From positions 1,408,001 through 1,472,000 of the forward strand of contig CBDBZY010000064.1 of NCBI GenBank assembly GCA_965213685.1: DNA of 64,000 nucleotides, in the 5' to 3' direction. Both the position numbers and the translations under genes were made by a program. The notes below the pieces were generated by a model. It did no database searches and had not been told where the DNA came from. It saw nothing but the letters and a program-made list of their open reading frames with translations. Of this stretch, positions 7,334-62,510 are shown in pieces. The DNA comes from a bacterium. Its GTDB lineage: Bacteria > UBA8248. How positions within the stretch are numbered: the first letter of the stretch is position 1; every line of letters begins with the position of its first letter.

Positions 7334-7350
7334 GAAAGGAGTAAGTGCTT

Positions 7351-7869
7351 CTAATTGTCTAAAAAAGGCGGTGTATTTACAGGAGGTAGGGAGTCAGACA
7401 ATAGGGAACAATGGGTCACACCGTCTGCACTGATGTCTTCACTGTGAGTAACAATGACTGTGTCTGTAGCAGTTGCAGATGAAGATGTAGAAGATTGTTG
7501 AGCATTGTCTGGTTGCAGTGTAGATGTTTGTGGTTGCTCTGGTTGCTGGCCAGGTAGGACATTGGCAGGAGAGCTGTCTTCATAGCAGTACATATTCTCT
7601 AGTTTCCAACCTGTGTGGGTAGAAATGTTCATCCATTGTTGTTCAAGCATGTTTATGGCAGACAGATCTCCCCGTATTACAAACCACCACCTTTTCACCA
7701 GTCCACATTGCGAGGTTTTGTACTTGCGTTTGATTACCAGGCCACTTGTCAAAGATTGTGTGGGAATGAAGCGCCCAATTGCATTGAATAGTGCTGTCGA
7801 TGTGGTAGACCTCAGAGTGCCCCATACCTTCCTTGCATCTGGGATGAGAGCACGATTCTTGAGTGGTTT
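7351..7869 (-). CDS. LINE ORF1 C-terminal fragment
   Basis: Open frame directly upstream of ORF2 within the element (RKVWGTL..KRWWFVIRG..GWKLE, then Q/S/T-rich tail); the first residues of track ORF 7351-7908 are host sequence. Confidence 0.75.
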   Translation of the reverse strand, partial: KPLKNRALIPDARKVWGTLRSTTSTALFNAIGRFIPTQSLTSGLVIKRKYKTSQCGLVKRWWFVIRGDLSAINMLEQQWMNISTHTGWKLENMYCYEDSSPANVLPGQQPEQPQTSTLQPDNAQQSSTSSSATATDTVIVTHSEDISADGVTHCSLLSDSLPPVNTPPFLDN

Positions 7870-12150: not shown

Positions 12151-13057
12151 GGATCCAAGAACTCTAGTTGTCTTTTACTTCTCTTATTTGAAGCAAATTA
12201 TATCGTATATATACATGTACGCTGCAAATTACTGTTTACCTTGTGCACATTCCATGGCGCACGGCTTCCACATGGAGCGATTTATCATCGTTTTTTGGAG
12301 TGTCATAACTCTGAGACTACAGCCCGGAACAAAATTTGTTTTTTTGTTACCTATGCCTTCATAATCATAGAGCGTTAGGCTAACAATTTAGAGCAATAGC
12401 GGCCTGCCAAAATAGTTTCCTCACTGCTTTTGCCGAGCTACCCGAAATAAATGTAGCTCGCTTCTAACCTCTGTTGCGCAGCTCCAGGACGGAGTCACCG
12501 CTCATGACTTGCTAGAGGCTAAGTCCTATAGTATATCTCTCAATAGCTTGACTGACTACAGCCTAGCTAACATCAGTGCGTGGAAACGTCTAGGTGAATA
12601 TGTAATTAGAAACGAATACCTTTGACCGCACACTCGCGCAGGCGAACTTCCGCTGCAAATAAAATTGTACACGTATGATGTACTTCCGGTTCCATTGGCG
12701 ACACGACTGGCGTGGCATAACGGTACGCCTCTACCTCTGGAGTTCCGTACCGTGCAGAGACTACAGCCAACTGCTCGCTCTTCAACTTTTCAGTGCCTAA
12801 TGTGCACATGGTATAGTCTCATGAATCAGACTCTCTCTAAGGGAGAGAGTCTGACAAACATGGCATAGGGCACTCGTGTTGCTGAGTCAGGACTGTTAAG
12901 AGTACTTGTAGTAACTATGGTTTTCGCACTCACAACTGTCAAAACCACTTAAGCGCAGTAATGAGTAATGTACACGGCGTAAGCTCGCGTGCACATTCTA
13001 AAAGAAGAGCTATCGTTGAAAGTGCTCGAACTTTAGGTTATAGCGAGCTAAAAGACA

Positions 13058-14803
13058 TGTCACCGGAATTTTGGTCCGGGCGATTTCGGACAGGACGGAC
13101 CAAAATCTCCGATATTGTTCCGCGGGGATTTTGGTCCGACTCCAGTTATTTTGGTCCGGGGCGGTCTGCTGCGGACCAAAATCGTTCCGCTGGGATTTTG
13201 GTCCGCCGGACCAAAATCACTAGTGATTTTGGTTTGACTCCAGCTATTTTGGTCCGGGGCGGTCTGCTGCGGACCAAAATCTCCGATATTGTTCCGCGGG
13301 GATTTTGGTCCGCCGGACCGTAATCACAAGTGATTTTGGTCTGACTCCAGGTCCGGGGCAGTCTGCGGTTCAACCCGCAGGGACATCGATCCGCCGGACC
13401 GAAATCGCCAGTGTGTTTTTGGTCCGGTCTGGTAGCGACTGTGCTTGCAGCAATGCAGTTCAAAACGTAGCCATAAGGCCAAAACGTGTATATCACTGTG
13501 ATAGATCCTGTAGCAGAGTCCTTTATAACAACAGTACAAAATATTTAACAAACAACATTTACAAACCAAGCAAGAACAAAACAGTACAACTACTTTCTAC
13601 AACTACTACAGAACCATGTATCCTGCTTCCAAGCAGCCTCTGGCACTTGGAGAGTGAAACCACTTACGACAACAGTCACAACAGATCATGCTCATATCTT
13701 CAGGCTGTCTGCATGAGCAAAACACTTTGACAGGTATTGTACAGAGTGACTTCTGCTTTCTTTTATGTCGAACTCGACAAGAGAATGCAGAGATTGAGTT
13801 TTGCATCAAGCACTGCAACAGGTGATCACACATCAAATGCTGCACATATAGTTGATTTTACCAGGGTCTTCGCCACCGCAGAGTGATGTGGCAAATGCTA
13901 ATGCATATAGTCCACAATCATTAGAGCCCATCTGCTTCTGCACATGCTGAATGTGCAAAACTATACTTTTATTCTTTGTGAATAAAAGTGCAGCAACCTG
14001 TTGCTTTGTTCGTCTTGGTACACGGGTATTCGGGCCGCTGTCATATATATTAATATGTCCTGGCTGGCAACCAATGTTGGACACAGTTATCCAGTGACAG
14101 CCTGAAACATTCAAAATCTGGACAAACTCTCCTTTTGGAATGTCAAAGGCAAGTGTCTCTCCTAAGATGTTTGCTTTCTTCAGTAGCACCATGATGTTAT
14201 CATTAAGCCATTTTCCTCCTGCAATGATCTCCTTATCTGAAGCGTAGAGTCGCAGAGAGAGCTGACAGCTAGCCTAAAGCTCTCCATGACGACTTACTAA
14301 GAACACTTTTCCAACAGCTACACTCGCATAGATGGCAGAGAGGTGGTAATGTGCTCTATCTGGGTACTTCGAGACTAGCGGATGCTATCTATCCGGCTGC
14401 AACTCGGCCTGCAACCAATCAAATTGAGCTCTCCGGGATAGCAGTCCCGAGCTAAAGCGCATCACCTGCATCAGCTTGGATCCTAAAGGCACTACTACAG
14501 AGTCAGAAGGCTCTCTATGTAGGGATGGCGCCGACACACCCTGAGTGCGCGTACATCAAACTCGCGACGTTTCGCGTCCGTTCTAAGCCTTTCTGGGCAC
14601 CTAGCTGTCCTATGCCAGCGTTTCTCAACCTAATGATACCTCCCAAATACCTAAAATGCATCCTTTGACTTACTCACAGAAAACCAACTTGAGGATATGT
14701 ACCGGACCGTTATCCCCAATGCGGACCATTTTATCTATTGCACAATTTCAGAGTAAATGGTCCCCCGGACCAAAATCCCTGACGGACCAAAATCTCGGTG
14801 ACA
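13058..14803 (-). mobile_element. Ginger1-like DNA transposon derivative carrying Ulp1 protease + PHD finger
   Basis: TIRs TGTCACCG..TTTTGGTCCG / GGACCAAAATCTCGGTGACA; 4-bp TSD GACA (13054-57, 14804-07); many TTTTGGTCCG subterminal repeats. Confidence 0.8.
13606..14240 (-). pseudogene. Ulp1/C48-like cysteine protease followed by PHD finger (frameshifted)
   Basis: KWLND..; FVQILNVSGCHWITV..IYDS..QKQMGSNDCGLYALAFA (H-D-Q-C arrangement); then VFCSCRQPE..MICCDCCRKWFH. Confidence 0.8.
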
Positions 14804-15407
14804 GACATGCAGATAGAAGCCATTGCCAAGCAAATTCAATGGGAGAGGAGCTCCAAGCCTCGTAGAGTACGTCTAACAGTGGTACAGCTGTCACCATAGA
14901 ATCTTTTCCTTCTCCTAGGATCAGGGGGCACAACTCCCCTACGGAGGCAGCGCAGCATCTTCAGTACAGTGGAATGCGATTGCGTTGAGAAATTGCGTTT
15001 TTCCGTTCTCCGTTCCGGAATAGACCTCAGAAGCCCGCCTTCTGCGTATGTGCCTCGCCCTCAAGGCGGAAATGGGGAACACAGAAGGCGACGATCTCCT
15101 CCCCGACATTGCGCTTCCTCAGAGTCGCGGATCTCCTGAAGCGGGTGCATACTGGGATGCCCGTTGTCACACTAGGGTCGGTCCATTTCCGTGGGAGAAT
15201 GACAGTCACCAGGAGATCAATTTTGACGTAAGGATACGAACACTCCTTCTCTTTAACGTGCATTCTAATAAAAGCTCGCTTCAGGGTTGTGTGTACTCTA
15301 GGTTTAAAAACAAAAATATCATGATGTAAGTGTGTTCCTGTAAGTGGTGATGTATGCTATTGTCAATCTTTCTACAGTGTTCCTGAAGTAGTAAAACATC
15401 TACAAGG

Positions 15408-16169
15408 GTGAACATAAACTCAAAAGTGTTCCACCAATATTCAGTTAAGGTGATGAATCCAAAGCGGAGAACAAGTTTTTACGTACACAACATGACAACT
15501 ACACAGAAGTTTCTTTCAAAAGAAGAAACGATGGATGTGTTGTGTAAGGAACTGGGCAGCAAGGTTGAAATGGTTGGATTTCTATCACCTGGACATGGGC
15601 TAAAGGGGAAGCACAATGTTTTAAATAGTGATAGTGATCTTGCACAAATGTATGAGGAGTATAGATTGAAGCGATGTGTTATACGACTATGGTGTCTGTG
15701 TGAAACGAAAGATAATGCTGTTGCTGTTGATACAAAGAAGCGTGGTCATGAAAGTGAAGAAGGTGAACCATTGTCAAGCACTAAGAGGAGCACCTGTCAA
15801 CAATGCATGCAAGCAATTGAGGATATTGTTGATAAGCTGCGTGAAAAACATGAAGGAGAATTCTCTATTGAGAAGCTTAACGCATGGGGTCATATGATAC
15901 ATATGGGCAAACATGCTTCGTATGATAACCCACCAGACTTGCCCTACTTTAAAAAGTGTTCTAAGAAGAGTGGATCTGCTGCACAGCCAATTGTTGACCA
16001 CGTGGTGTCTAATCTGTCCCCTGCAAAACGAGTCCAGTTACGTAGCGAATGTATTGATCAGCTATCCAAGTTGCACTCTTTGTTGGAAAAGGGTGGAATG
16101 CCCACTGAACAGTATAATGCACTGCAGAAGGCAATATTTACTGACATTAAAAACTTTCAGCAGAAATAA
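15408..16169 (+). CDS. Cargo ORF of IS630-like element; possible PB1-like N-terminus and SHOCT-like C-terminus
   Basis: 253-aa open frame inside the TIRs; C-terminal QLSKLHSLLEKGGMPTEQYNALQKAI resembles SHOCT; true start unclear. Confidence 0.55.
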   Translation: MNINSKVFHQYSVKVMNPKRRTSFYVHNMTTTQKFLSKEETMDVLCKELGSKVEMVGFLSPGHGLKGKHNVLNSDSDLAQMYEEYRLKRCVIRLWCLCETKDNAVAVDTKKRGHESEEGEPLSSTKRSTCQQCMQAIEDIVDKLREKHEGEFSIEKLNAWGHMIHMGKHASYDNPPDLPYFKKCSKKSGSAAQPIVDHVVSNLSPAKRVQLRSECIDQLSKLHSLLEKGGMPTEQYNALQKAIFTDIKNFQQK

Positions 16170-16392
16170 TGTTGTGAGTACATGCAAGGATATAGTTCAG
16201 TACACCTGGTGTCATCATTACTCAAGGATATTATCTCAAACTGACGCTGCATTTCATTTGTGTTTCTACTTCCATTGATGTGTGTAAACAAAACTCAGTT
16301 CAGCAATACAATATTGTTTGTGTTTCTACTTCCATTAATGTGTGTAAACAAAGCTCAGTACAGTATTGTGGATTAGCATAATGTGCATGTGT

Positions 16393-17343
16393 TTACTTAG
16401 CATATCCAGAATGAGTAATCCATGCCTCACAGTGATTCTTGGTTATTGCATCAAAACCAGCTTGCAGTACATCTGAAGGGTCTGGCAATGATTGCAGCAG
16501 CTCATCATGTTTTAGGTATTGTTTAACAAAACTGAATGCCTCTTCGACTGGGTTTAAATCTGGGCTATATGGAGGAAGGAACAGGACAACAATTCCAGCG
16601 TTTGAAAGCAGCTCAGTTACATCAGGAATGTGGTGCACAGAGCAGTTGTCCAAAACTAGCACAGAGTGTGAACTACTTCCATCAAACGCTCTCATCTTAG
16701 GAATGAGTGTTCCCCTGAGAAATTCAAAGAATTTTCTCCATTAACTGAATCTTTTGTGATTTCTGTTGCCAAAACTCCCTCAGCCGTTATTGCAGCAATC
16801 GCGTTGACTCTTTGCCCTCTACAAAGAAATCGGTGGCTAACAGGAGTTGTCCCTCTAAGTGTGTAGCCAAACTTCCTCAAACTATCTCTTCTGTCTGCAC
16901 CACTTTCATCGAGCCATACAAACATATTCCGCTGAAACATGAAAGTCTGAGACATGAATGTTCCTCGTAGTGCATCGCATTGTTGTAATGCGACTTGCCT
17001 TTTTTTTTAGTCCGTACCTTTGCAAAAGCCTACATATGGTTGATGGAGACACTTCAATGTCAAAAGTAGACTTGACAGACTGACACATCTCGGAGAGGTA
17101 CAAAGGAGGATTTGCAAGTACTAAACCTACTACATAGAGTTCAGCTCTGTCAGTTAATCTCCTTAAGTTGTGCTCACTGGCTTGCTGGGTTACTTCAATA
17201 CCTCCAGTTCGGTGGAATTGAGTATAAATAAGATTCTTGGCAATTTTCTCAAATGTTAGGTTCCTTGCAATTCTTTGGTAGACTATTCTCCATCTGAGAT
17301 CCGAAGAGTAAGCCTTCTTTCTGGCTGGCTCTGCTGTAAACAT
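16393..17343 (-). pseudogene. IS630-type DDE transposase, two frameshifts
   Basis: HTH region KKAYSSDLRWRIV..LYLSEM..VSPSTICRLL; FVWLDESG; VLVLDNCSVHH; FLPPYSPDLNPVEEAFS. Confidence 0.9.
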
Positions 17344-17665
17344 TTTCAAGCTCTGCGCAAGACGGAAATACACGGATTACTGTACACGTAATGAGGGCGG
17401 AATTCCGGAACCACGGAATTTCTCAACGCAATTGAAAAGCGCTGCAGAGTCGTTGTGCGCAAGCTGTGACGTGGCCTCTGTCACGAGTGTTGTTGCACTT
17501 GTACGCGTTCACACGGGCCTACGCTAAACCACAACCACGCATCTAATTGATTGTCCACGATTTTCGTGGCCCCTCACGACTCAATGTACGCATGTTTGCC
17601 AGACTCTCTTCCGCAGGTAGAGAGGCGTGGTTTACGAGACTACACATGGTAGAAGTGGTACAGTG

Positions 17666-18251
17666 TAGTCTGGCGTAGCCTGACTATTCGCGCTACGCGG
17701 AAGTAGTCAGGGGACGTTAGCATCAATGACTTGTATCTCTGCAACTATAGTTGCAGTCCAATCAGATTGCAGCAAAATCACTAATTGTCCGTGGAATGTA
17801 ATCAACGCACGGCGCCCGCGTAGCTGAACGGGCGGTAGTGCCTTCTGACACCAGCGGCTAGCCTTCTGACAGAGAAGCGATCGCGGCGAACGCTGCTAAC
17901 AAGGCCCAACAGGGCCTGGGATATGCATTCCTGAAACCTGAACAGCTACAGGTTGTGGCAGATGTGTTGTTTGGACGCGATGTCTGTGGAGTGGCCTCGG
18001 AAAGACTGTACTACGCAGTACTTTCGCCTACATTTGACCAAGTGTACGCTGGCAGCCACCCGTCCATTGTCCTGGTAGTATCTATACTGACAGCCATCAG
18101 AGGCTGGGGCCGGCCGGGGGATGTGTATGCGTTCACGTGATAACAGCGCGCGCATTATTACGTAATGTCACATTCCTGAGATACAGGTCGTAGATACTAA
18201 CGTCCCCTGACTACTTCCGCGTAGCGCGAATAGTCAGGCTACGCCAGACTA
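17666..18251 (+). mobile_element. AcademH-like MITE with RecQ fragment
   Basis: ~70-bp TIRs TAGTCTGGCGTAGCCTGACT.. / ..AGTCAGGCTACGCCAGACTA; TSD GGTACAGTG (17657-65, 18252-60); internal LGYAFLKPEQLQVVADVLFGRDV. Confidence 0.88.
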
Positions 18252-31115: not shown

Positions 31116-31477
31116 TGTCGGACGAAGTTTCTTTGCGACTTGAGATATACTGAGCTATTTACTACTCGTATGAAGGTATTGTGTGCTAGGAAACACAATT
31201 CATGAATATGCTACGTGACCTTACACTGTACGGATATGCAGTCTAAGTTGGTTCCTTTAAAGGGGACTGCGCTTCTACGTGCCCGGCGCCCCAGACGGAT
31301 TATCGCGCAAAATTACGTAAGCTGAGAGTGAGACTGAGTTTGCCTTAGTGCACCTAAAACACAGGCTGAAGTATAGGAAGCACTCAGTCAAAGCTAGCGT
31401 TCGTACCATGCAAGAAACTAGGGCCTACCTTGCTAAAGTAGCTTTATAAGGTGTATAGGCCTATGCAAGGCATATTC

Positions 31478-31540
31478 TAGTCTCGCTCGCGAGCCAGACC
31501 CTCGTTAATCGGGATTACGAGGGTCTGGCTCGCGAGACTA
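31478..31540. mobile_element. 63-bp palindromic TAG..CTA mini-element
   Basis: TAGTCTCG..CGAGACTA hairpin flanked by exact 9-bp GGCATATTC. Confidence 0.88.
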
Positions 31541-31749
31541 GGCATATTCTACCTAAAAACGTACAAAGAACCCTAACTTACAAATCGACGTCAGATACTT
31601 CTGAGCAGTATCTATGGTATGTCAGCCTCTTATTCACATTTTTAGCGATGTGGGAGGTAGGGTAAGCGTCCTTATTGTGAGACAGAGGGTATTAGTTAAA
31701 ATCATTGAATACTAAATGTCATTGCCCTTAGGTTAATTACTTTGGTCAT

Positions 31750-33829: not shown

Positions 33830-35061
33830 AATTAGCGCTCTCATCTACGTTCTTGGTGGCGTAGTAGTCAGCGGTAGTTGTATGTGTGAAGTTTGTTGAA
33901 CAGTTATTCACTTGTTCGTCTACTGTTCCATAATAGGTACCTTGTCCCATAATATCTACAATGAGGTACTGAAAGAAATATCCATTTTCAATAACACGGC
34001 ATGAGGTAGTAATTGTGGTACGAGTTCTCTATGCAAAGGTGGTTGTGGGTGCAACGTTTTAGTTTCCTACATACACATGGTAGGTTTTTGTGGGCAGGAT
34101 TGCTTGTGTCTCATAACTGGGTCACTTACCCCACGTTTAGATCGCGGTGCGTCTGGTAAAATATATTTTGTACTTGTAGTGTACAGATCTTTACTGACGG
34201 AAAATGTATGAAAAAACCGTGAATCACTCATGGGACGAAATTACATCAGGAAAACCATGAGTCACTCTGACTCATGGGACGATTTTACATCAGAAAAACC
34301 ATGAGTCACTCATGAGGCGATTTTACGTCACTTGATATTCACGTAAATGCACACGCTGTTCACTCGGCTGCTTTGTGACGCCAGGGCGGAGACTGGCTAG
34401 GGGTGACGCAGGGGGCAAGGGCTAAGGGAGGCTAGGCCACTCGGTTTTGTGACGGGGCAGGGGCTAGGAGTAGACTAGTCCCCTCGGTAGGCTAGAAACT
34501 AGTAGCAGCAGGCTAGGACTCGAACGCACAATCATGTAATTGCCCAAGGGCTAGGGGTAGGCTAGAAACTAGCAGCAGTAGGCTAGAACTAGTCTCGTGA
34601 GATAGACCCTCGTAAATCCGAGACTAGGGTAGGACTCGGCCGTTTATCTACGCAGGTGCCGTTTATCCCACCTGATCCCTCGACGTAACGCCGCTTAGCT
34701 TCTTGCGGAAGTTTCTCCACGTAGGGCGAAAGGTTTTCCATGCTGTACACCAGTATGCCCGCAACCGCGTTATGACGTAATCATAAATGACGCAATGAAA
34801 AAGGTCTATATGGGACGATTTTATGTCAGTTGGTAATTGATGATTAGTACAGGGGTAACTCACGTAAAATCTCCCCATATATTAGCCCTCAGCTCTACTC
34901 AGGCCCTATTCTACGCTGGGGCGGGGCAGTGAACTCTGACCTCACGTAAAACGTCCCCATATAAAACGAAGACCTCCTCTTGAGGAACGTTTTATGAGTG
35001 CACCTTGACCTCACGTATACAATTAAATTTAAAACAAATAGTGAATTGTGGAGGGGCATAT

Positions 35062-40100: not shown

Positions 40101-42395
40101 GCCTAAACAATGCCCTAGCTGCCTTACATTAGCTGACTCTCATGCACTGGCTATGGCCATTTGAGACTCACAGGTTCCTCAACGTAATTCCCAACATATC
40201 TGGCCTTGCTATTGCTGACAGACAACTAACTTCTGAGTGTAACCTAACCAAGAGGTGTGGTGGAATTGAAATTTTGTGGAACCATCCAGTGAGGAGGCCC
40301 TAGAGGCTTGGGAGATACAAATATGCTCTTATTGGAAATGATATATCTTGCTAGCCTCGTTCCCATGCCTTTCCCGTTTTTACGTGCGCTTGGTACACGC
40401 GAAACACAGGAAAAATTCGAAAAACGGGAAAGGCCTGGGACAATCAGTCACGTGAGGTAGACGCGTAGGGCGAGGGCCCCCTACCGTGTCTGTGACAAGC
40501 GCTCTTGCAAACGTGTTGGTTGGCACTCTTGCACTGCCGTGTACTGCATTTGCGACGAGGTTTAATCTACAGGTCCCGGTAAAGCCCCGGACACAGTAGG
40601 GGCCCCTCCCCCTAGGCGTCTACCTCACGTCTACCTCACGAGTTGAAGGAACTTAGCAAAATAAGCCTGGAGGTGATGCTTGACCAAGGGCAGGCCCCGA
40701 GTATGAAGAAAAGATGAAAGGGAAGAAATTGACCCAACAATTTGCAGATGTAGGACTACCCTCGAGTGTCAGTCCTGGGAAAGATGTGAGAAGATGTTTA
40801 AAACAAAGATCCCAAGCGATTCAAGACACTTTTACAATCAACCATCCCTGGTGACCAGCTTCTACACAATGGCAAGGTTATTTCTGACCCTCCATCTATT
40901 ATTGACTGCAGCTGCTCTACAAGATTTAGACCACCTACACTGCTTGTCAAATATGAACTGTGATGGCATGAATTCACCACTGAGGAGATATCGAGGCAGC
41001 ACTGAGGAAGTTGAAACCGATAAAAGCCAGTGGAATCGATGGCCTTCAGTTCAAGCACTTTCAATATGGTGTGCCCCTCCTTATTCTATGGTTAAGGCAG
41101 ATGTTTAGTGCTTTTGTGCACTTGGAATATATTCCACCATGCATTCTCACTGGAGTCATTCAACCCATCTACAAGGGCAAGGAGGGCAAAGACCCCTTAT
41201 GCTGTGATAGCTACAGGGGTATTTCCATAACCTCAGTCTTCATGAAGCTATTTGAGTATGCTTGAGAAAATTATGCCTGTGCTGCAGGAGAACGCTGATC
41301 CTGTCCTAACTTTGACAGCATACAGAGAGAAAATTTCATGTCAAGATGCCATCTTTACCTCAAGACGCCATTCAAAACATTCTGCATAATGGGAACACCA
41401 CCTTTCTGTCTCTCAATGACCTAGAGAAGGCTTTGGACTCAATTGAACACCCTATTCTCCTGCAATCACTCTTCCATGCTAGAGTGAATGTGAAATCGTG
41501 GAGGCTCATCAGGGCTTGGTACAGCAATATCTCAGCTGCAGTCAGATCTGCGTCTTCCATATCCTCCCCCTTCCCTAGCGGGGCGTGCAGCAAGGCTCTG
41601 TTTTGTCACCAAACTTCTTTCTGGTTTTGATGGATGAACTCCTCCAAAAGCTTTGTGAAGAAAACTGTGGTACATCTACCTGTGGACTGTACCTTGGTGG
41701 TGCTGCTCATACCAATGATGTGAGGGCCATTGCATCATCTGTGACTACTGCTGAGACACAGGGAGCACTCATCTCAGAGTTTTCTTTTGAAAATGGTCTC
41801 CAGCTTAACAAGGGCAAGATGAAAATTGTCAAAAAATTGCCCATACAAACCACTCTGACCATGAACAACTTAGAATCAACCATCTCCACCCTACACCAGG
41901 CCAAGTGCTTGGGTTTTCTCTGGTCAAGTACTATGTCAGCTAGACCTAGTATTGAGCACAATATCAACAAAACAAGAAAGCAGTTCTTTGCACTGGGCTC
42001 AACTGGTTGTTCCTGGGATACTCCAACTCTCTCTCAGCAAAGGAGATAGTGAAGACATGTGTCATTCCTACCCTGTTATATGGAGCTGAAAATTGGACCT
42101 TGGATAAAGCCTCCTCTCAATCTTCAAGAAGGGTTTCAAGCTGAGCTAGGGAGAAGAATTCTCAAGCTTTCAAAGTATCATTCTTGATTGTCAATCTTAA
42201 TCGGTCTCTCCTGGCCAACAATGAAAGCAAGACTTCTAAAACAAAAGCTCTGTTTCCTGGGGAAGCTACTCTCAGACGACAGAGACAATATTGCCACCCT
42301 GAGTGACTATTGCATTGCAAAATGTGTATAACACCTCTGTTGTTCAGCAGTGTATTTTCCTAAACTCTGTTCTAGGTACCAATGCCACTGCACAT

Positions 42396-42452
42396 TAGTC
42401 TCGTGTAGCCAGACTCTCCTGCTTGCCAAGAGAGTCTGGCTATGCGAGACTA
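42396..42452. mobile_element. 57-bp palindromic TAG..CTA mini-element
   Basis: TAGTCTCGTGTAGCCAGACTCTC..GAGAGTCTGGCTATGCGAGACTA flanked by exact 9-bp ACTGCACAT. Confidence 0.88.
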
Positions 42453-43784
42453 ACTGCACATATCCTTAGCAACCTTGAAAATGTGGAAGCCTCTGTGAAA
42501 TCTCAAGTGAAGTCTATTACATCTGCTGACAGACAGTCTATTCTTCAGGAAGCAGCAAATTATCAGTTGGTTGTGTTAGCATAGGATGTCAATTAATTAA
42601 CTAGCTTCGAGTGTGGGATGCTGCAAGAGACAAGGGCCAATTTTGGACTGGGATTGCACAAGGTGTTTATTAGTCTTGTTCTCAGACCCTCCACTCTCCC
42701 GTTACTAGCTCTACATAATAGTTAGACGCCGAGTCCAGGGAACTATGGTATATAGAAACCCGAAGGCCCTGGGCTGTAGCGTCCCGAGCGCAGCGAGGGC
42801 GCTACTAAGGGCGCGAGGGTTTCTAAGTACACAGCCAAACATAATTGGGCTCGATTCGATGCTGACTGCCGTAAGGCATCGAATAGAGAACGGGATGGAG
42901 CTCGAATCGAGCACTTACGGCCTCGTACCGACACTGGGGTTACATATCGATTCGAGCTGTAAGGCAGACACCGTACATCTGGGACTGCCCCAACTGAACG
43001 TTCCGATACTGTAATTCTGTACCGTATCGCGCACGTTTACGTCCTCCAAATCGGGATTGGCCGTGTACCGTAGATCTATAGTCTCGTGAACCAGACGTAA
43101 TCCCACGGGGAATTACGTCTGGGCACACCTGCCAGGGTTTTGGGCCCTCTGACGGAATGTTATCAGGGCCAATCAGATTGCAGGAAGCGCTTTATTACAT
43201 TCCGCGAAACATTCCTGCCACCGTGCAAGCGTCCCCGTACGCGCATTTTTTATCTGACGCACCCTTTTCGAACTTAGCGTGAGTTCAAGGTTCACAATAA
43301 AGTGTGGGGCGCGCGCGGCCGGCAATGTGTCCCGCAGAAAACGTGATGTGACAGGTGAGCTTTCTGTTTTTTTTTTTTTTTTTACATGGGGGGCAGGAAT
43401 AGGTGGGAGCAGGGGTCCCCCCCCAAATACACACTTGCCAGCTATCGTCACAGTAGTGTATCAAAGCTTTTTGTAGGCTGACGTTTGTTGCTAAATGCCT
43501 CCACTGTTCTTCCTACTCACATGTATAAACGCAAAACTTACACTAAGCACTATTTTTGTTTTGTTATGGTGACTGTGACAAAGTTTTGTGTTTATACGAA
43601 GTAAATGTTAACTAAGTGGACGGGGCATCTAGCCACACCCATATCCGCCTACAAAAAATGTATAAGCACTACAATAGCTGGAAAGTGGGGGGAATGGCCA
43701 CCCCTGCTCCCATCTATTCCTATCCCCATGTAAGAAACAAAACGCACATCACGTTGTCTGCGTTAGGAACGCACTGCCGTGTAC

Positions 43785-44593
43785 TGGGATGGACTACGAG
43801 TTGATGAGGGTCACGTGATATCGCGCAATGCACAGTATACAGTAACAGACGCTGTACATGTACATGTACTAAACGAGGATGGCTAAGTTCGAAAGAGACG
43901 GTAAAAATGGCAGGGTCCAGCCTACTCTCAAGGGCTGCTAGCATGCTAAGAGTGTAGCATCGAGTTCTTGCTTACTGTCACCACATTTTGGTTCTCCTCT
44001 CACGTAGCCTCGCTTGCGAGGCTACCTCTCACGTTGGACGCCTTTTTCACCTGGTCAGTGATTATTCAACTGTCACTGTAACTTGATTTCTATTCAAGAG
44101 ACTTAGTGCTTATTCATTTCACTGCATAAGGTCAATTGTATTCCTCTTCGTCTTCACAACATTCCTTCCCTTGAATTTGTTCCGTCACATATTCACTGAA
44201 TCCCTTCATTTACACAAATCAATCTTACATACCCTGAATGTTGAACTTAGACCTTATGTGATCCGTAAAGAGCGCGAAAGTCAATTGTCAGTCACACAAC
44301 AGAGATAAGAGCTCTACACGGTGTGGAGCTCTTTAATATATCTATGAATCCGTGCGGAGTCGAGCCATGGCAACGAATACAGCACCACAGTGGTTGAAGA
44401 ACACGGGCGTCCTTGATCATTCTAACTATGTGTTATTTCTTCGTGTATACTATACACAATAAATCTGTCTGTAGCACGATGCAGGTATATAAACACGTTT
44501 CACTGAACTTAGCCCCATCTGTACAGCTTGCGCAGTGCGCATTGCGCTATATCACGTGACCCTCATCCACTCGGGTGAACTTAGTCCATCCCC
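43785..44593. mobile_element. MULE-like MITE with 9-bp TSD
   Basis: TIRs (T)GGGATGGACT..GATGAGGGTCACGTGATAT / ATATCACGTGACCCTCATC..AGTCCATCCCC; TSD GCCGTGTAC (43776-84, 44594-602). Confidence 0.78.
44005..44024. mobile_element. 20-bp TAG..CTA micro-element
   Basis: TAGCCTCGCTTGCGAGGCTA flanked by exact 9-bp CCTCTCACG. Confidence 0.75.
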
Positions 44594-44694
44594 GCCGTGT
44601 ACGGGTGCGCCTACACACTTTATTGTGAACCTTGACCTCACGCTAATTTCTAAGTTCGAAAAGGGTGCGTCAGATAAAAATTCGCTCCCGTACT

Positions 44695-44900
44695 ATGGCT
44701 ACAGCTGCCTTCTCCGAGAGGGCGATTGACTTGGCTATACGCAGAGCAGCGGAGAAGCTCGGATACTCCAAGCTACGTCACCAGCAAGTGAGAGCCGTCA
44801 AAAACTTCGTACAAGGCAACGACGTATTTGTGAGTCTCCCAACCGGGGGCGGGAAGTCTCTATGTTACTGCATCCTTCCTGCTACCTTCGACTCGTTGTT
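44695..44900 (+). pseudogene. RecQ-family helicase N-terminal fragment (motifs 0 and I)
   Basis: LGYSKLRHQQVRAVKNFVQGNDVFVSLPTGGGKSLCYCILP. Confidence 0.85.
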
Positions 44901-45021
44901 TGGAGCTGATGGTCGACACCTTGCACGCTGCATCTTCCTCTCAGACTGCGACAATCAAATTCTTTTTGCGTTTAGGGTTAATTATCATTACGTCACCGCA
45001 TACCGCGCAGATCCCAAAACC

Positions 45022-45583
45022 TAGTCTCGCGAGCCTAGTCCACACCCGCAAAAACGGGAAGTGGTCTGGAGACTTCACGTAAATCTCTGGAACGCAATTA
45101 TTGAATAAAGTCACGTGTCAAACGCGTACTTATTGGCGAAGTGACGCGCACAAAACGAGCATGCTGTCGATGTCACAGGTGTGATGGCTGCGTGCGTTCT
45201 CTGTCTGAGCGCTGTGCTGTTGAGTATTTTGCTAACAGTCGTCAGGTTTGCTGGACTAGCAAGTCGGAGTTTACTAGAACACAGGCTGCAGTTACCGCTA
45301 AGTTTTCTAGCTGGCCCGCGAGTGCGGCACTTTCGAGGCAGCGTAGTCTGTCCACAGTTCGAGTACAGACGAGCGTAGCGACTGTTTTGGGTAAGTGCTA
45401 GTCCGAACCACACCCGCGTTTACTCAGTCACCTTGGAATGCATGCCTTAATTATGCGTCATGTGACCATATTACCCTAATTACCCGCTCTGCAGTTTTAT
45501 TGGCTCTATTGAAATTCCGGAAGAGGTTTACGTGAAGTGGTCCCAAATCTCCAGACCACTTGTGGTCTGGTCTCGCGAGACTA
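45022..45583. mobile_element. TAG..CTA element (AcademH-like) nested in the TIR of 43079-45649
   Basis: TAGTCTCGCGAG.. / ..TCTCGCGAGACTA; TSD CCCAAAACC (45013-21, 45584-92). Confidence 0.85.
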
Positions 45584-46229
45584 CCCAAAACCCTGGCAGG
45601 TGCGCCCAGACGTAATTCCCCGCGGGATTACGTCTTGTTCACGAGACTACCGTAGATCCTGTTGGACGAGGCGTCTAACTCTTTTAGAGCACGGCACATC
45701 GTCTGCGCGTTACTGCTGGGCACGGGTCTAGCGGGCCCACGAACGTGCGTAGAGTGCAGACGTTCTTATGTAACATTGCATCACGGTACATGTTTTACGC
45801 ATGCAAGGGGTGGAGTTAATAAACAGGTTCGCAGGCCCGCGGTACCGCGCGCATCACGTGATTTGCTCGAGGCACGAAAAATAGATACCTCGACTTAGCC
45901 TCGCTCTCCCCCGCGCGAGATGTTGATGCGTGATTTTTGAACTGGTAAGCCACGGGGGTCAAAGGTTGCGCGTAACAATCGCTCGAGCAGAGGGCCTGGA
46001 ACGAGGCCAGGTATCTACGAAAAATAGATACCGCTCACAGACCAATCAGATCACCAAATTCGGAGTAGCCGTGCTCTAAGTTCGGAAAACGGAAGAGGAG
46101 GGTCTGGTACAGTTGACACAGTACTCCGCGGAATTTTAGAGGGCCAAATCTGATTGGTTGATTGGCTAATTATTACGTTCCGAATATTCACGCCTGTTCA
46201 CACGCGAGTGAAGAAGCGGACATTGAGGC

Positions 46230-47483: not shown

Positions 47484-47556
47484 GACCCAGTGGCTCAGTG
47501 GTAAGAGTGTCTGACTAGTAATCAGAAGGTACTGGGTTCAAATCCCAGCTGGGTCC
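47484..47556 (+). tRNA. tRNA-Thr(AGT)-like cloverleaf, probably SINE head or pseudo-tRNA
   Basis: Acceptor GACCCAG/CTGGGTC, D arm GCTC/GAGT, anticodon TCTGA-CTAGTAA-TCAGA, T arm CTGGG-TTCAAAT-CCCAG; A and B boxes present. Confidence 0.5.
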
Positions 47557-48069: not shown

Positions 48070-48250
48070 CCGAAGAGAAAACGAACAGCTGCCTCAGGCA
48101 GGATTCGAACCCGTGACGTTCTGTGTGCTAGGCAGATGCTCTACCAACTGAGCCACAGAGGCAGCTCAGCTGGGTAGGCCGAATCTTTAAATGTTATTCA
48201 AGGGCAAAGGTGTCTCTTCCCTGATAAGCAGGGTAACTCAATTCAGTACT
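48070..48250 (-). mobile_element. tRNA-derived SINE
   Basis: Reverse strand GGCTCAGTTGGTAGAGCATCTGCC..GGTTCGAATCC; related copies at ~53220-53340 (-), 53395-53600 (+), 54150-54320 (-), 55945-56045 (-). Confidence 0.75.
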
Positions 48251-52985: not shown

Positions 52986-53606
52986 TAGAAAATTATGAGT
53001 ACCCAGATTTGGGTATTTCCGGAACAGTGTATACCAGGCCACTTCTCCCCCCCCCCCCGCATGTGGCCCCTCCCCCTACACATGCCTCCCCCATGCGTCA
53101 TGGCCTGAATATGAGGCTACAGTTAGAACTAATGGAAGTGACATCATGACATCAGCATTAGTATGATGCAATTATGTTATTGTTGACTCAAGACATACAG
53201 TATATACTGCATACATGTACATGTACCATGCAGATCCTCTACCAACTGAGCTATTGAGGCAGCCCAGCTGGGCGGGCCGCATATTTAAAGGGCAGGGGCA
53301 TCTCTTTCCTGATAAACAGGATAATTCTATCTCAGTGATTAGGGGTAATTAACTGACTAAACTGTGAAATGCACTGAGCAATTACATGTATGTAGTAACC
53401 CTGTTTATCAGGGGAGAGACGCCATTTGCCTTGTATAAACTTTAAAGATTCGGTGGCTCAGCTGGTAGAGCGTCTGCCTGGAACGCAGAACATCGCGGTT
53501 TCAAGTCCCACCCAAGGCAGCTCTTCTTTTTCTCTTGGAAAACAGTAGTTGTCTTCAGGCGTCATTGCTTGGATTTGCCTTGTCTCTATGACTGATTATA
53601 CATGTA

Positions 53607-54077: not shown

Positions 54078-54524
54078 TACATGTAAACTTGGTCATCGAG
54101 ACAAGGCAATTAATGCTAAGAAACCAGGCTTGAAGACATTTTCAGAGAGAAAATGAAGCTGCCTCAGAATGAACTTGAGCCTGTGACACACTGCATACCG
54201 TGCAGATGCTCTACCAACTGAGCTACTGAGGCAGGCCAGTTAGGCATGCTGAACCTTTAAAGGTTATGCAAGAGCAAGGGTATCTCTTCCTTGATAAACA
54301 GGGTAACTCTCTCTCTCAGTGCTAAAGAGTGAACATGTACATGTACAATGTACATGTAAACACAAGTCCTTTTGCCAGTCTGCTCTCTACTCCCTCTATG
54401 CGATAGGGGGCAGTGGAGTGTTGAGACGGTGTACACTGTACATGTGCATGAAAATATGGTACATGTACGAGGCCACTCAGCAAGTCTGTGGCAATACTGC
54501 GAGATGTGGACCCACAACAATATC

Positions 54525-55270: not shown

Positions 55271-56037
55271 GCACACACATGTACATATACATGAGGAAAG
55301 GCTGGTCAACCGTGAAAAACCGGCAGCCACTCGGGATTGAACCAGGGGCCTCTGACTTTAGTCTTCAGTACTCTACCACCTGAGCTATGGCCACCAGGTG
55401 ACAGTCAGCCTTCACAATTCTCAATATCACTCCGTATGTGCCATCAGAATCCTGCTAGGGATCGACCGGTAACTCCTCTCCATCAGGGGAGAAGCCACAC
55501 TGAGTGAAAATATTCTGTTCATTCATAACAGTGCACGTGAAGCTGGGTCTCCCTAGGGAGCCACCGAACACAACACGCAAGCTACGTTATACATGTACGT
55601 GAGGAAAGGCTAGGGAATATTTTTAGAGAACCGTGAAAAACCGGCAGCCATCTCATGGGTACATGTACATGCATGTACATGTATGCATCTCATGGGTACA
55701 TGTACATGCATGTACATGTATGCATCTCATGGGTATATGTACATGCATGTATATACACATCAGTCAAAGAGACAAGGCAAGGGAAAGCATCTATGTCAAA
55801 AGACTGAGTATTAAAGGACCATACTCCACACTGAGTAATTACATGTGTGCTGTAAACATCAAAGAGACAAGGCAAGGAAAAACAATAAATGTACATGTAC
55901 ATGTACATGTACACCATACATGTATTTTTCTCACAAAAATATCAGCTGCCTCAGTTACATGTATATGTAGGACTCAAACCGGTGACATACAATGTACAAT
56001 GTACTGACACCATACAGATGCTCTACCAACCAAGCTA

Positions 56038-60639: not shown

Positions 60640-61000
60640 TAATCACTCACGTGCGAGAGCCATGAAAGTCACATGACAATAACCTCCCAGCGCGCGCGCG
60701 CAGCGCAGACTGTGTCTCATGCCCAGACGCCCCATATGGCAATATGGCCATGTAGGGTCCCTGTAAGTCCATGCATGGCCTATACGGCTCAGGCTCTTGG
60801 GAGGGGCTTGTACGAGGCTAACAGTGAGCCATGCATGGGTGTGGTAGTCTCATGAAGGCCAATCAGATTGCCGCAACGCACATGTCACGCAAATGTCACA
60901 TGATGTAGGCTCTGCCGCACTTGACAAGCATGCATGGGTACGTCACTGAGCTAGGCAAATGAAGGCGGGGGCGGAGCTTGTTCTCATCGTTGGGAAGTAG
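60640..61000 (-). promoter_or_regulatory. Putative PP2A-C promoter region
   Basis: CpG-rich stretch immediately upstream of the ATG, with CCAAT (60859) and GC-box-like GGGGCGGAG (~60968). Confidence 0.4.
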
Positions 61001-62510
61001 CCGGGACACTCTATTAGCGGCTAACTGTTGTAAGCGCCGAGAAGGGTTGACGTATTTCACAACAATGGTAGTCCTATCATAGATATAATAGCTCCGTACG
61101 GAGCTATTATATCTATGGTCCTATAGATCTCCCACCTGCTTTTGTGCGCAAGTGCCATACACTGGCTCTCACAGCAGACGTACGCGTGTATGTAGTAGCA
61201 TGGATAGAAGGTTGTAGATGAGTTATGGAGGCTAGAGGGAATGTGTCGACAGCCATTTGCGAGTACCAATTTCAAACATGAGCTGTTCTGAGGTTAGAGC
61301 CAAATACTGGCACGTGCGATGAGCTAGCAATCACATGATTAGCAAATGACGTAGAGTAAGTGACCCAGTTATGGGACAACAATCCTGCCCACAAAAACCT
61401 ACCATTTGTATGCAGGAAACTAAAACTTTGCACCCACAACCACTATTGTATAGAGAACTTGTACCACAATTACTATCTCATGCTGTGTTATTGATTGCCA
61501 TAAAATGGATATTTATTATTGTGGGACAAGGTACCTATTATGGGACAGTTAAGAAAAGTAGACGGAACAAGTGAATAACTGTTCAACAAACTTCACACAT
61601 ACGACTACCGCAGAACTCACACCACAAGTACCACATCATAAGGTTTTTGAGATCATAGTCAACAATTAACATTTCTATCTCTGCCTTGGTGTATCTATTA
61701 TGAGACACTATTTGTGTATTATTGGACAACGCATCTTTCAGGAAAACCAGGTGAACTAGTAAAACACCATATTCAACTGCATATGACCAAAGTAATTCAC
61801 CTAAGGGCAATGACATTTAGTATTAACTAATGTCTCATTATACCCTCTGTCTCACAATAGGGACACTAACTCATGAAAAGGAAATCAACTAACTGTCCCA
61901 GACTGGGTGGTCTGGAAACGAGACTAGAATCAGACTCAGGTGGAGAGGCATGGTTTACGAGACTATGGGTGTGGACGTGGGGCATCTGAGCACAAGACTA
62001 AGCACACAATGTACATATATAGTCGTCGTTCCCAGACAACTGGCTGCTCATAACTGCATCCATGGGTAGGTTATGGTTACGCAGGTTCACTGACTGTTGG
62101 CACTTCCAGTGTTTTGTGGTTCGTTATGATTTGAAGGTCAACACAACTCCTCAGTCATTGATGCAAGATGTATGCTGCATCAGAGGTACACAGGTGTGGC
62201 TATTAATTTTTTATGTACTACATATGGTTATCCTTGCTTAATCTACTTATACAATACAAGTTCCACAGGGTATTCATTTGATCTACATACTACTATGAGG
62301 ATATGACTAAAACAGAACATTCGTCAGGAGATTGATACTGTACAAAATGTAATAAAACATATAGTGTACATGTATTCACAGCCAGTATGTAAACAAATCG
62401 ACTGTATATACACAGGTATAAAAATATTGTCATTACAGATGATATAAAATTACACCAGAACATGTGTACACATATACACCTACACAAAAGGATGGTTGTA
62501 GTGTCAGTAG

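Follow-up and report, generated by a model that had tools for sequence, protein, structure and literature searches.

A solo LTR is what remains when the interior of an element is lost between long direct repeats, with the target-site duplication (TSD) kept and the product immobile. Among DNA elements, Drosophila FB elements make a 9-bp TSD and Mutator-like elements make TSDs of 8-11 bp. The formation of short non-autonomous elements by microhomology-mediated miniaturisation is described for the Gnome, Elf and Goblin MITEs of Aedes aegypti, derived from Ozma; there (PMC3814204), the parent is an identified autonomous Tc1/mariner element with a TA TSD, and the microhomologies of 6-8 bp are scattered internally. 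The same paper covers foldback or hairpin MITEs, including PALTA1_CE, Hairpin of Arabidopsis and others, and treats their origin as not explicable by simple internal deletion (PMC3814204). Galileo of Drosophila mojavensis has copies that are near-complete, "2-TIR" with a short middle, or a single TIR, "solo-TIR" meaning one end occurring alone, and the accessible portion of its description (PMC3573991) gives no subterminal-palindrome junction rule.

The family described here was found in a 64,000-nt stretch of DNA (the window), and is an undescribed member of the foldback MITEs and of the class formed by microhomology-mediated miniaturisation; a literature search with most subscription journals and Repbase outside its reach found no paper on these ends or on a sponge MITE with a 9-bp TSD. 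Like Gnome, Elf and Goblin, its short members appear to be non-autonomous products of internal deletion with junctions at short homologies, whereas the parents here are themselves non-autonomous, TSDs measure 9 bp, junctions are concentrated in a conserved hairpin close to the terminus, and the products are of 20-150 bp and are mostly single-copy in the assembly. The family is foldback-like, as is Galileo, and it resembles the foldback and hairpin MITEs in that a whole element can amount to roughly one hairpin, TSD-flanked and non-coding; those elements are usually hundreds of bp with long arms, whereas the short elements of the window (minis) are far shorter at 37-63 bp and have longer two-hairpin relatives, so that junctions can be mapped. 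The likeness to solo LTRs lies in the loss of an interior between repeats at both ends of one element, but the homology here is a palindrome arm of 6-16 nt or only 1-2 nt, both ends are kept, and the product is still able to move, judged by its insertion sites. The family resembles Mutator-like elements in its 9-bp TSD, its varied interiors and the gene fragments that it may have captured, but a MULE transposase between these ends was not found in the searches described below.

Host DNA and anatomy of the elements

The window is eukaryotic DNA inside a bacterial bin (GCA_965213685.1, contig CBDBZY010000064.1). Twenty-two contigs of the assembly, totalling 4.9 Mb, have a GC content below 0.56, and the remainder of the bin is at about 0.65. 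Long ORFs are scarce in the window, which encodes a LINE endonuclease and reverse transcriptase as well as a Tc1-like DDE_3 gene. We also detected tRNA-Thr(AGT) and tRNA-Ala(AGC), whose anticodons we take to be of eukaryote type, and the stretch is found in public runs labelled sponge metagenome. The source is probably the nuclear genome of the sponge host. Eleven features of the window are referred to below.

31478-31540, unstranded: mini 1, a 63-bp hairpin element; TSD GGCATATTC (9/9) at 31469-31477 and 31541-31549
42396-42452, unstranded: mini 2, a 57-bp hairpin element; TSD ACTGCACAT (9/9) at 42387-42395 and 42453-42461
34590-34626, unstranded: mini 3, 37 bp; decayed TSD GGCTAGAAC / GGGTAGGAC (7/9) at 34581-34589 and 34627-34635
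44005-44024, unstranded: 20-bp remnant, TAGCCTCG-CTTG-CGAGGCTA, two 8-bp ends plus 4 nt
12814-17642, unstranded: composite of 4,829 bp, an asymmetric element of the ~570-bp type; TSD CACATGGTA (9/9)
16393-17376, minus strand: Tc1-like DDE_3 gene nested in 12814-17642
Positions 1686-1871, in 12814-17642: high-copy repeat of ~190 bp
17666-18251, unstranded: 586-bp element of the TAGTCTGG subfamily; TSD GGTACAGTG
43079-45649, unstranded: 2,571-bp element with 66-nt terminal inverted repeats; hairpins at 43091-43122 and 45606-45637
45022-45583, unstranded: 562-bp element nested in 43079-45649; TSD CCCAAAACC; empty paralogous sites
60845-61965, unstranded: 1,121-bp element of the asymmetric family; TSD TGGGTGTGG; second right-type end at 61897-61926

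Every end is composed of a terminus T (TAGTCTCG, TA-GTCTCG), a spacer L of 4-5 nt, the hexamer CCAGAC (S), a variable stretch and GTCTGG (S'). In this layout the terminal hexamer is repeated once inverted and once direct, giving a subterminal hairpin, and the S and S' hexamers are probably repeated binding sites for the transposase. Minis have the form T-L-S-var-S'-L'-T', in which both ends are retained and one hairpin is held in common. The TAGTCTCG 8-mer occurs 14 times in the window against 0.93 expected, with a maximum of 3 in 100 shuffles, and terminal inverted repeats (TAGTCTCG..CGAGACTA) are present, with arms of 66-79 nt in long copies. The architecture of long ends was read from 38 long elements: among 68 unique ends of TSD-supported long elements, 37 carry an S-type hexamer (CCAGAC-type) whose exact reverse complement lies no more than 100 nt away, against a shuffle mean of 1.1 and maximum of 4. 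T and S covary. TAGTCTCG ends pair with CCAGAC (43 ends), TAGTCTAG ends with CTAGAC (3/3 parsed), and TAGCCTCG ends use CCAGG-type stems (30 ends tallied, 15 with a parsed partnered hexamer, 12 of these CCAGG-type; 12/12 with such a hexamer) and never CCAGAC. Across 42 unique minis, the CCAGAC-type motif is found in one arm only in 16 and in neither arm in 3.

The family is a non-autonomous cut-and-paste DNA transposon making 9-bp TSDs. Exact 9-bp TSDs flank 51 of 328 candidate end pairs assembly-wide, four shifted-offset controls giving 0, 1, 0 and 0, and the same end pairs give 0, 1, 1, 0 and 0 TSDs of 7, 8, 10, 11 and 12 bp, respectively. Of 48 short palindromic pairs, 31 are flanked by a TSD with no more than one mismatch. 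Paralogous sites lacking the insert were found both for long copies and for minis of 20, 39, 56, 67, 68, 71, 80, 107 and 113 bp. Element sizes are bimodal (76 unique elements: 41 below 150 bp, one at 150-250 bp, the rest at least 250 bp). The minis, at 20-150 bp, are without coding capacity, and long copies of 287-1622 bp hold just broken ORF pieces; long-copy interiors differ from one another and contain some gene fragments. Long families comprise 2-4 copies each at distinct sites, and those of 556-781 bp keep their interiors across copies.

The reading of the window made from sequence alone had placed three such units, flanked by TAGTCTCG..CGAGACTA termini and 9-bp TSDs matching at 9/9, 9/9 and 7/9 positions, exactly where we find minis 1, 2 and 3, and had described the first two as single hairpins. 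Predicted DNA folding agrees, with -28.1 kcal/mol (z -8.2) for mini 1 and -22.9 kcal/mol (z -7.6) for mini 2, and 0/200 shuffles as good; mini 3 does not fold as one hairpin over its whole length (z -2.8). Mini 1 consists of T, spacer, CCAGAC, variable stretch, GTCTGG, spacer' and T', with a 4-bp CTCG duplication in its left arm. It has relatives of 58 bp and ~43-50 bp at other loci and no long relative in the 4.9 Mb of contigs with GC <0.56. Contigs from runs X9 and X11 end within its hairpin and one from X3 ends at its edge, and no empty-site joint was seen for it among the matches listed from public-run contigs. Mini 3 is a half-hairpin derivative of the mini-1 type, in which T, spacer, xxAGAC and CCTCGTAAATC are fused straight to T'. 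The host repeat has four paralogous copies in which GGCTAGGAC is present once, with no insert, and mini 3 is thus an old insertion with one mutation in each TSD copy. We conclude that these 37-63 bp pieces are genuine very small cut-and-paste transposons; as at least some remain able to move, they are regarded as unusually small MITEs and not dead relics. The 20-bp remnant has its own TSD, CCTCTCACG, at 43996-44004 and 44025-44033, and four empty paralogous sites.

Subterminal palindromes in longer copies, also proposed in the sequence-only reading, are located at 12827-12853, 17679-17711 and 43091-43122, and its proposal that long elements share the ends of the minis is borne out by the 37/68 partnered hexamers. 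The first palindrome belongs to the composite 12814-17642, whose ends are TAGTCTCA-TGAAT-CAGAC.. and TAGTCTCG-TAAAC-CACGCC... The left end at 12814 had been partnered with 14377, which was mistaken, the true partner at 17642 being identified by the 9/9 TSD; what had been described as a long copy is an element of the ~570-bp type swollen by nested insertions (the DDE_3 gene, the high-copy repeat and a Ulp1-like fragment). The second lies in the 586-bp element, which has inverted-repeat arms of 79 nt. The third lies in the 2,571-bp element, which has a TSD CCGTAGATC at 43068-43076 and 45650-45658 with an additional TA at 43077-43078, and hosts nested inserts including 45022-45583 and the 20-bp remnant; uninterrupted copies of it elsewhere measure 556 and 567 bp. 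For the nested 562-bp element, public contigs show the joints 45012->45584 and 45014->45586.

Junctions between long copies and minis

Ten minis, picked from the 42 unique ones because BLAST gave a TSD-supported long relative, were mapped against their longer copies. In four the collapse is in register: the flanking alignments overlap by 16-32 nt, the whole hairpin is common to both, and mini sizes are within 0-2 nt of T-L + hairpin + L'-T'. Mini 2 is an in-register relative of a 601-675 bp family, with a left match at 1-44, a right match at 14-57 and an overlap of 31. Another four are out of register, with an overlap (microhomology) of 1-2 nt, and all 8 of their breakpoints fall in hairpins or at their edge. 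For the remaining two (124 bp and 80 bp), the ends of the available long copies give no match that explains them. For minis of the TAGTCTGG-CGAAG type, the 4.9 Mb contain no long relative. Three minis carry both differing ends of asymmetric long elements and therefore had a two-ended origin: in C18:280913 the dissimilar ends of the asymmetric family to which 12814-17642 belongs are brought together, and C18:575316 and C64:1612386 each combine a left loop with a different right loop.

The best explanation overall, to which we assign a probability of about 0.7, is a family of the sponge host in which minis form by loss of the interior between subterminal hairpins, some of them being mobile. According to this scheme, a longer copy would lose the segment that separates its two subterminal hairpins, leaving T-L-S-var-S'-L'-T', either in register between repeated stem arms or via 1-2 nt of microhomology within the hairpins. 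The deletion itself may proceed by slippage, single-strand annealing or interrupted gap repair. The products would retain all recognisable end motifs, with some at least mobile, and further deletions around the hairpin tip would shrink them to remnants of 20-45 bp.

The palindrome-to-palindrome collapse proposed in the sequence-only reading accordingly stands for the four in-register minis but not for the four with overlaps of merely 1-2 nt or the two unexplained ones, and its formula of left end plus right end is right as to the one shared hairpin but wrong in placing the junction at the palindrome centre. The allelic pair it anticipated, a long copy and a hairpin mini sharing one TSD, was not found among the shared paralogous sites. 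Size differences in place were seen at three such sites: a 68-bp and a 45-bp form at one, which points to further shrinkage of some minis, a 90-bp and a 30-bp form at another, and a 771-bp element against a remnant of 11 bp at the third. The alternative form of mini 2 is an empty site. The comparison with a solo LTR is apt for the loss of the interior, but a dead relic left in place does not describe at least mini 2, which has an empty form in three runs.

Mobility, the missing partner and rival origins

Evidence for movement comes from insertion sites. A joint 42386->42453 in runs X9, X3 and X11 omits exactly mini 2 and one TSD copy at single-copy depth; it is represented by one contig per run, placed at 90% likeness, whose shorter side measures 23-32 nt, and empty-site joints of such a kind can stem from repeats or other organisms. 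The intact mini 2 is spanned by one X1 contig with 0 differences. Sibling minis with differing TSDs occupy separate sites in three cases, namely mini 1 and C64:731121, mini 2 and the 55-bp mini at C41:504076, and C16:428348 and C18:556933. Across 71 other metagenome loci, a TSD with at most one mismatch is present in 49/72 minis, compared with 0/72 at up to three mismatches in the offset control; the loci were chosen by the mini pattern itself, which biases the proportion of minis to long copies among them. One cluster of 41 related minis in other metagenome contigs sits at 20 distinct TSD-supported flank pairs. This cluster and the empty-site form of mini 2 indicate that at least some minis move. 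In the present assembly minis are mostly singletons, most are unique in their variable stretch, and, as clusters travel within other repeats, their members usually have one TSD in common, a pattern equally compatible with repeated local collapse and with transposition. Two apparent footprints were rejected, C16:368186 being a microsatellite and a case on C4 a low-complexity region.

Neither the 4.9 Mb nor 526 kb of metagenome loci, a sample covering only a fraction of the host genome, yielded an autonomous copy bearing these ends or a transposase linked to them, and mobility is accordingly inferred from insertion sites alone. Assembly scans with Pfam families (MULE, Transposase_mut, DBD_Tnp_Mut, Tnp_P_element, IS1595-type and hAT) gave no match bounded by family ends. 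PF10551 detected a single MULE-like ORF below cut-off (C18:392141, 24.9 bits) with no T ends around it, and a metagenome protein scan with this ORF returned no relative; PF00872 and PF03108 had no match in the assembly, the PF03108 control being likewise silent. ORFs of at least 250 aa between facing ends in the assembly and metagenome loci included no transposase, and end pairs 6-30 kb apart with a TSD were only composites of carried minis. An 8.8-kb end pair on C16, from pairs with similar arms 1.5-12 kb apart, proved to be a longer inverted duplication around a membrane-protein ORF and does not belong to the family. Merlin is not supported, as the sole DDE_Tnp_IS1595 match belongs to an element that has GGATCATGTGG.. 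inverted repeats and makes an 8-bp TSD, and neither is Tc1/mariner, the family's TSD being 9 bp of varied sequence and not TA. The DDE_3 gene in 12814-17642 was set aside as the family transposase because it belongs to a nested piece, which stops ~198 bp before the terminus and recurs elsewhere without family ends. The 9-bp TSD is within the Mutator/MULE range, and a Mutator-like affiliation is a guess from TSD length.

The closest rival holds that minis are immobile, formed in place by recombination or slippage between the palindromes of the left and right ends. The exact in-register products (4/10), the in-place size changes at 68/45, 90/30 and 771/11 bp, and the variable stretch that is unique in most minis of the assembly would all be expected from it. 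We nevertheless consider it unlikely, given the four junctions with just 1-2 nt, the exact empty-site form of mini 2 with a single TSD copy in three runs, siblings at different sites with different TSDs, the 41-member cluster at 20 sites, and the failure to find a long/mini pair with a common TSD. A hairpin could also arise from one terminus, if a new strand folded at S-var-S' and copied its own spacer and T. Some minis indeed form a better palindrome than does the hairpin of the closest long relative (C64:309207, CCCTCTCGGCA|TGCCGAGAGGG, vs the long copy CCCTCTCGGCAAGCGGGAGAGGG), both arms of the 124-bp mini, and likewise of the 80-bp mini, reproduce a single "big-loop" end, and template switching has been proposed for hairpin MITEs (PMC3814204). 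Single-terminus copying seems improbable, however, since C18:280913, C18:575316 and C64:1612386 carry both unlike ends or loops of asymmetric long elements and the arms are no more alike in minis than in long copies (1.12 vs 0.97 mismatches over the first 12 nt).

The reverse order of descent, with the hairpin unit as the basic mobile element and long copies arising as minis or single ends captured the DNA between them, is about equally improbable. It could account for a TSD-flanked 434-bp element, L084:5192-5625, that has a complete 72-bp mini as its right end, for subfamilies known in the sample solely as minis, and for the heterogeneous, gene-fragment-bearing interiors of long copies. Against it, the 556-781 bp families have conserved interiors at different sites, and long copies have a complete S-var-S' hairpin at each end with no inner spacer'-T', which rules out simple insertion into a mini. 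That the units are not mobile at all, being chance palindromes or bacterial REP-like repeats, might be suggested by the filing of the assembly as a prokaryote genome, but it is refuted by the TSD controls and empty sites and we give it almost no weight: the 9-bp length of the TSD is exact and its controls are clean, many paralogous sites are empty, the architecture and TSDs recur in independent contigs, and the GC 0.65 contigs have zero TSD-supported pairs and at most one TAGTCTCG 8-mer per contig.

Meaning for the family and its host

An assembly filed as a bacterial genome includes ~4.9 Mb of host DNA, which matters for users of its gene content or repeat statistics. The family offers a worked case for the birth of fully palindromic mini-MITEs, as two-hairpin parents and one-hairpin products are present in one genome, which allows direct reading of the junctions. 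Units flanked by TSDs and measuring as little as 20-63 bp can be true insertions or remnants, which standard repeat annotation would miss. A further and rather doubtful possibility is that the hairpin is a built-in breakage and rejoining module: with the terminal hexamer repeated both inverted and direct at each end, the interior of any long copy could be bypassed on folding, so that mobile hairpins of 40-75 bp are repeatedly produced. If so, these hairpins would be among the smallest known eukaryotic mobile elements while retaining every transposase site, sponge genomes would receive a steady supply of new perfect hairpins, and the module would act as a size-limiting counterweight to the growth of DNA transposons, comparable to solo-LTR formation for retrotransposons.

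An assembly of mixed origin and the three window minis

The assembly (GCA_965213685.1) is filed as a single prokaryote genome of 7.97 Mb in 71 contigs, with 94% completeness and 3.7% contamination on record. It is a mixture: 22 contigs, making up 4.9 of the 7.97 Mb, have a GC content below 0.56 (0.44 for C64, the contig that holds the window at 1408001-1472000), and the other contigs lie at about 0.65. The low-GC contigs contain LINE, Tc1, hAT and Merlin elements. We read C64 as eukaryotic because of its low GC, the scarcity of long ORFs in the window, its LINE and Tc1 sequences, its tRNAs (tRNA-Thr(AGT) and tRNA-Ala(AGC), whose anticodons we take to be of eukaryote type), and the presence of the stretch in public runs labelled sponge metagenome, where some contigs show a single difference in about 1,500 letters. 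C64 is most likely nuclear DNA of the sponge host, and marker-gene contamination scores are blind to the 4.9 Mb of low-GC eukaryotic DNA in this assembly.

Coding and tRNA features of the window
4517-7393, minus strand: LINE with endonuclease and reverse transcriptase
13833-14273, minus strand: weak Ulp1-protease-like ORF, nested in a 4.8-kb composite
16393-17376, minus strand: Tc1-like transposase (DDE_3 and HTH) in three frame pieces, nested in a 4.8-kb composite
47484-47556, 48088-48163, 53447-53519 and 54160-54232: tRNA or tRNA-like matches among dense inverted-repeat elements

The matches at 53447-53519 and 54160-54232 are low-scoring and may be tRNA-derived repeats; an ARAGORN 'tRNA-Pyl' call at 55321-55395 is without Rfam support.

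The three short units named in the sequence-only reading, at 31478-31540 (mini 1, 63 bp), 42396-42452 (mini 2, 57 bp) and 34590-34626 (mini 3, 37 bp), were all found in place. Minis 1 and 2 are single hairpins, as it had proposed (DNA folding z of -8.2 and -7.6), both with an exact 9-bp TSD. Mini 3 has no hairpin fold, and its flanks match at 7 of 9 positions; four paralogous copies of its host repeat carry a single GGCTAGGAC and no insert, and mini 3 is therefore an old insertion with one mutation in each TSD copy. The window contains 14 occurrences of the terminal 8-mer, where 0.93 would be expected. With at most one mismatch per end, at most one in the TSD and spacing up to 6 kb, the assembly holds 93 end pairs, every one on low-GC contigs. 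Under a degenerate end pattern applied to the whole assembly, an exact 9-bp TSD was found in 51 of 328 candidate pairs, against 0, 1, 0 and 0 pairs at shifted offsets and 0, 1, 1, 0 and 0 pairs for TSD lengths of 7, 8, 10, 11 and 12 bp. Many elements, including minis of 20, 39, 56, 67, 68, 71, 80, 107 and 113 bp, are nested in repeats of other kinds; the sister copies of those repeats lack the insert and have the 9-mer once.

Architecture of long copies and minis

The ends of 38 TSD-supported long pairs (287-4,829 bp) share a common plan, composed of a terminal 8-mer (T, TAGTCTCG), a spacer of 4-5 nt (L), a subterminal hexamer (S, CCAGAC), a variable stretch of about 10-60 nt, the reverse complement of the hexamer (S', GTCTGG) and a family-specific interior. 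The variable stretch is often palindromic and often unlike between the two ends of one element; the three subterminal palindromes cited earlier are present and correspond to these S-variable-S' hairpins. After carried duplicates were dropped, 37 of 68 long ends had an S-type hexamer matched by an exact complement no more than 100 nt away; shuffles of the downstream sequence averaged 1.1 such ends and never exceeded 4. S and S' are similar to the core of T and covary with it: TAGTCTCG ends have CCAGAC stems (43 ends), TAGTCTAG ends have CTAGAC stems (3/3 parsed), and TAGCCTCG ends (30 tallied) have CCAGG-type stems in 12 of the 15 with a parsed partnered hexamer, CCAGAC in none. Since subterminal repeats are a pattern in other DNA transposons, the three hexamer copies per end are putative repeated recognition sites of one transposase. 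Two 21-bp TSD-flanked units, T-L-CCAGACTA, were also observed at C16:496586-496606 and C41:476874-476894 (further contigs of the assembly); in both, the inverted subterminal hexamer seems to replace the second end, which suggests that it may be able to act as a pseudo-terminus.

Minis have the layout T-L-S-var-S'-L'-T', with primes denoting opposite orientation. By a strict motif pattern, both arms carry the S-type motif in 23 of the 42 unique TSD-supported minis, a single arm in 16 and no arm in 3; a 4-bp duplication places mini 1 in the 'one arm' class. Sizes of the 76 unique elements are bimodal (41 below 150 bp, 1 in 150-250 bp, the rest at least 250 bp). Over 12 nt, mini arms show 1.12 mismatches and the arms of long copies 0.97, so minis are no more symmetrical in their arms.

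In the window, pairing of the end at 12814 with 14377 was rejected; its partner is 17642, with TSD CACATGGTA. This element matches the 572-bp C64:1400051 only over the first 231 and last 197 bp; everything between is nested material. The Tc1-like gene is part of it and is found again at C64:121969-125045, there lacking the family's ends. The element at 43079-45649 (2,571 bp) is a copy of a 556-567 bp family with nested inserts.

Some of the inserts nested in 43079-45649
44005-44024: 20-bp remnant with exact TSD and four empty paralogous sites
45022-45583: 562-bp element

At 43077-43078 an extra TA separates the first base of the 2,571-bp element from its left TSD copy; the right end has none. 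Broken ORF pieces in the long TAGTCTCG elements C64:1013680-1015301, C41:412393-413927 and C41:110227-111144 contain ..LPTGSGKSLCY.., which we take to be a RecQ-helicase-like motif; these may be captured host-gene fragments, in Pack-MULE fashion.

Junctions, empty sites and mobility of the minis

The sequence-only reading proposed testing whether a mini equals the left and right ends of a long copy sharing one palindrome, joined at its centre. Ten of the 42 unique minis, selected by blast against ends for having a TSD-supported long relative, were each aligned to the left and right 150 nt of that relative.

Mapped minis by register
In register: C64:303936 (52 bp), C64:309207 (56 bp), window mini 2, C18:280913 (55 bp)
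Out of register: C64:595934 (67 bp, relative of window element 43079-45649), C18:575316 (107 bp), C64:1612386 (134 bp), C64:987993 (39 bp)

In the four in-register minis the hairpin is covered by the left alignment and is also where the right one begins, with an overlap of 16-32 nt, and lengths equal T-L plus hairpin plus L'-T' within 0-2 nt. The four out-of-register minis overlap by 1-2 nt; all 8 of their breakpoints lie in the hairpin or at its outer edge, and the deletion typically starts at the left hairpin's 3' stem and ends at the 5' stem of the right hairpin. The remaining two (124 and 80 bp), with a 'big-loop' end type mirrored on both arms, were not explained by the ends of available long copies. 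The four in-register minis are what the sequence-only reading predicted; a junction at the centre of the palindrome does not hold as a general rule.

The arms of C18:280913, TAGTCTCG-TAAAC-CACGCC and TAGTCTCA-TGCAT-CAGAC, are the two unlike ends of an asymmetric family that includes window 12814-17642 and C64:1400051, and in the 107- and 134-bp minis a left loop is joined to a right loop unlike it. Both ends of the long copy therefore contributed, and snap-back from one end is excluded as the general route. Derivation of a long copy from a mini by one insertion is contradicted by its two complete hairpins, which are impossible by that route. Local collapse would fit most minis in the assembly, whose variable stretch is unique, and the multi-member clusters, which mostly have one TSD in common, though because their members ride inside other repeats; it is opposed by an empty site of mini 2, by sibling minis elsewhere and by a multi-site metagenome cluster. 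Contigs of the public runs X9, X3 and X11 carry the joint 42386->42453, which skips exactly mini 2 and one TSD copy, with 7-9 letters fitting both sides and depth near single-copy in each run (one contig per run, aligned at 90% likeness with short sides); a contig of run X1 spans mini 2 with 0 differences. Siblings lie at different sites with different TSDs (mini 1 and C64:731121; C16:428348 and C18:556933), as does the sibling of mini 2 at C41:504076 (TSD 8/9). A scan of public metagenome contigs for an exact pattern, in which the mini pattern was what selected the loci, recovered 72 minis from 71 loci (mean GC 0.39), with a TSD of at most one mismatch in 49/72 against 0/72 in an offset control allowing three; 41 of them (49-74 bp) form one single-linkage cluster spread over 20 different pairs of TSD-supported flanks. 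Structurally the collapse idea holds, but its view of minis as relics comparable to solo LTRs is not upheld as a general rule.

Change in place does occur: at one paralogous site a 68-bp mini in one copy corresponds to a 45-bp version without the hairpin tip in another, two further copies of the host repeat being empty, a second site holds 90 or 30 bp, and a paralogue of a 771-bp element is cut to its last 11 bp between TSD copies. At none of the shared sites did one copy hold a long element and another a hairpin mini. In one metagenome locus (L084), a 434-bp TSD-flanked element (5192-5625) has a full 72-bp mini as its right end. Pairing between minis and other ends may mobilise the intervening DNA.

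Relation to known families

No autonomous copy with these ends was found in the 4.9 Mb of low-GC contigs and 526 kb of metagenome loci. The sole Merlin-type transposase was rejected as a partner, its 1,802-bp element (C64:904675-906476) having different inverted repeats (GGATCATGTGGAGAGAACGG) and an 8-bp TSD (CTGTCAAC), as was the sole MULE-like ORF, which has a Pfam score below cut-off and none of the family's ends nearby. Mutator-like and foldback elements typically make 9-bp TSDs, and on this basis Mutator-like is a best guess and no more. Separately, C64:1155380-1157430 contains two arrays in inverted orientation with about 1 kb between them, a foldback-like structure whose 29/49-bp tandem units include TAGTCTC, CCAGTCTC and TGGTCTC and resemble the family end motif.

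PMC3814204 documents MITE birth via internal deletion at microhomologies and lists whole-hairpin MITE families that simple deletion is held not to explain, and PMC3573991 describes '2-TIR' and 'solo-TIR' copies of the foldback-like Galileo. The present family adds two things: the two-hairpin architecture of its parents is conserved and funnels deletions into one small region, and its products are small enough to evade normal annotation. No description of these ends was found in the literature searched, with Repbase, most subscription journals and supplements outside its reach. This is likely an undescribed sponge MITE family, and it provides an instructive route to hairpin minis.
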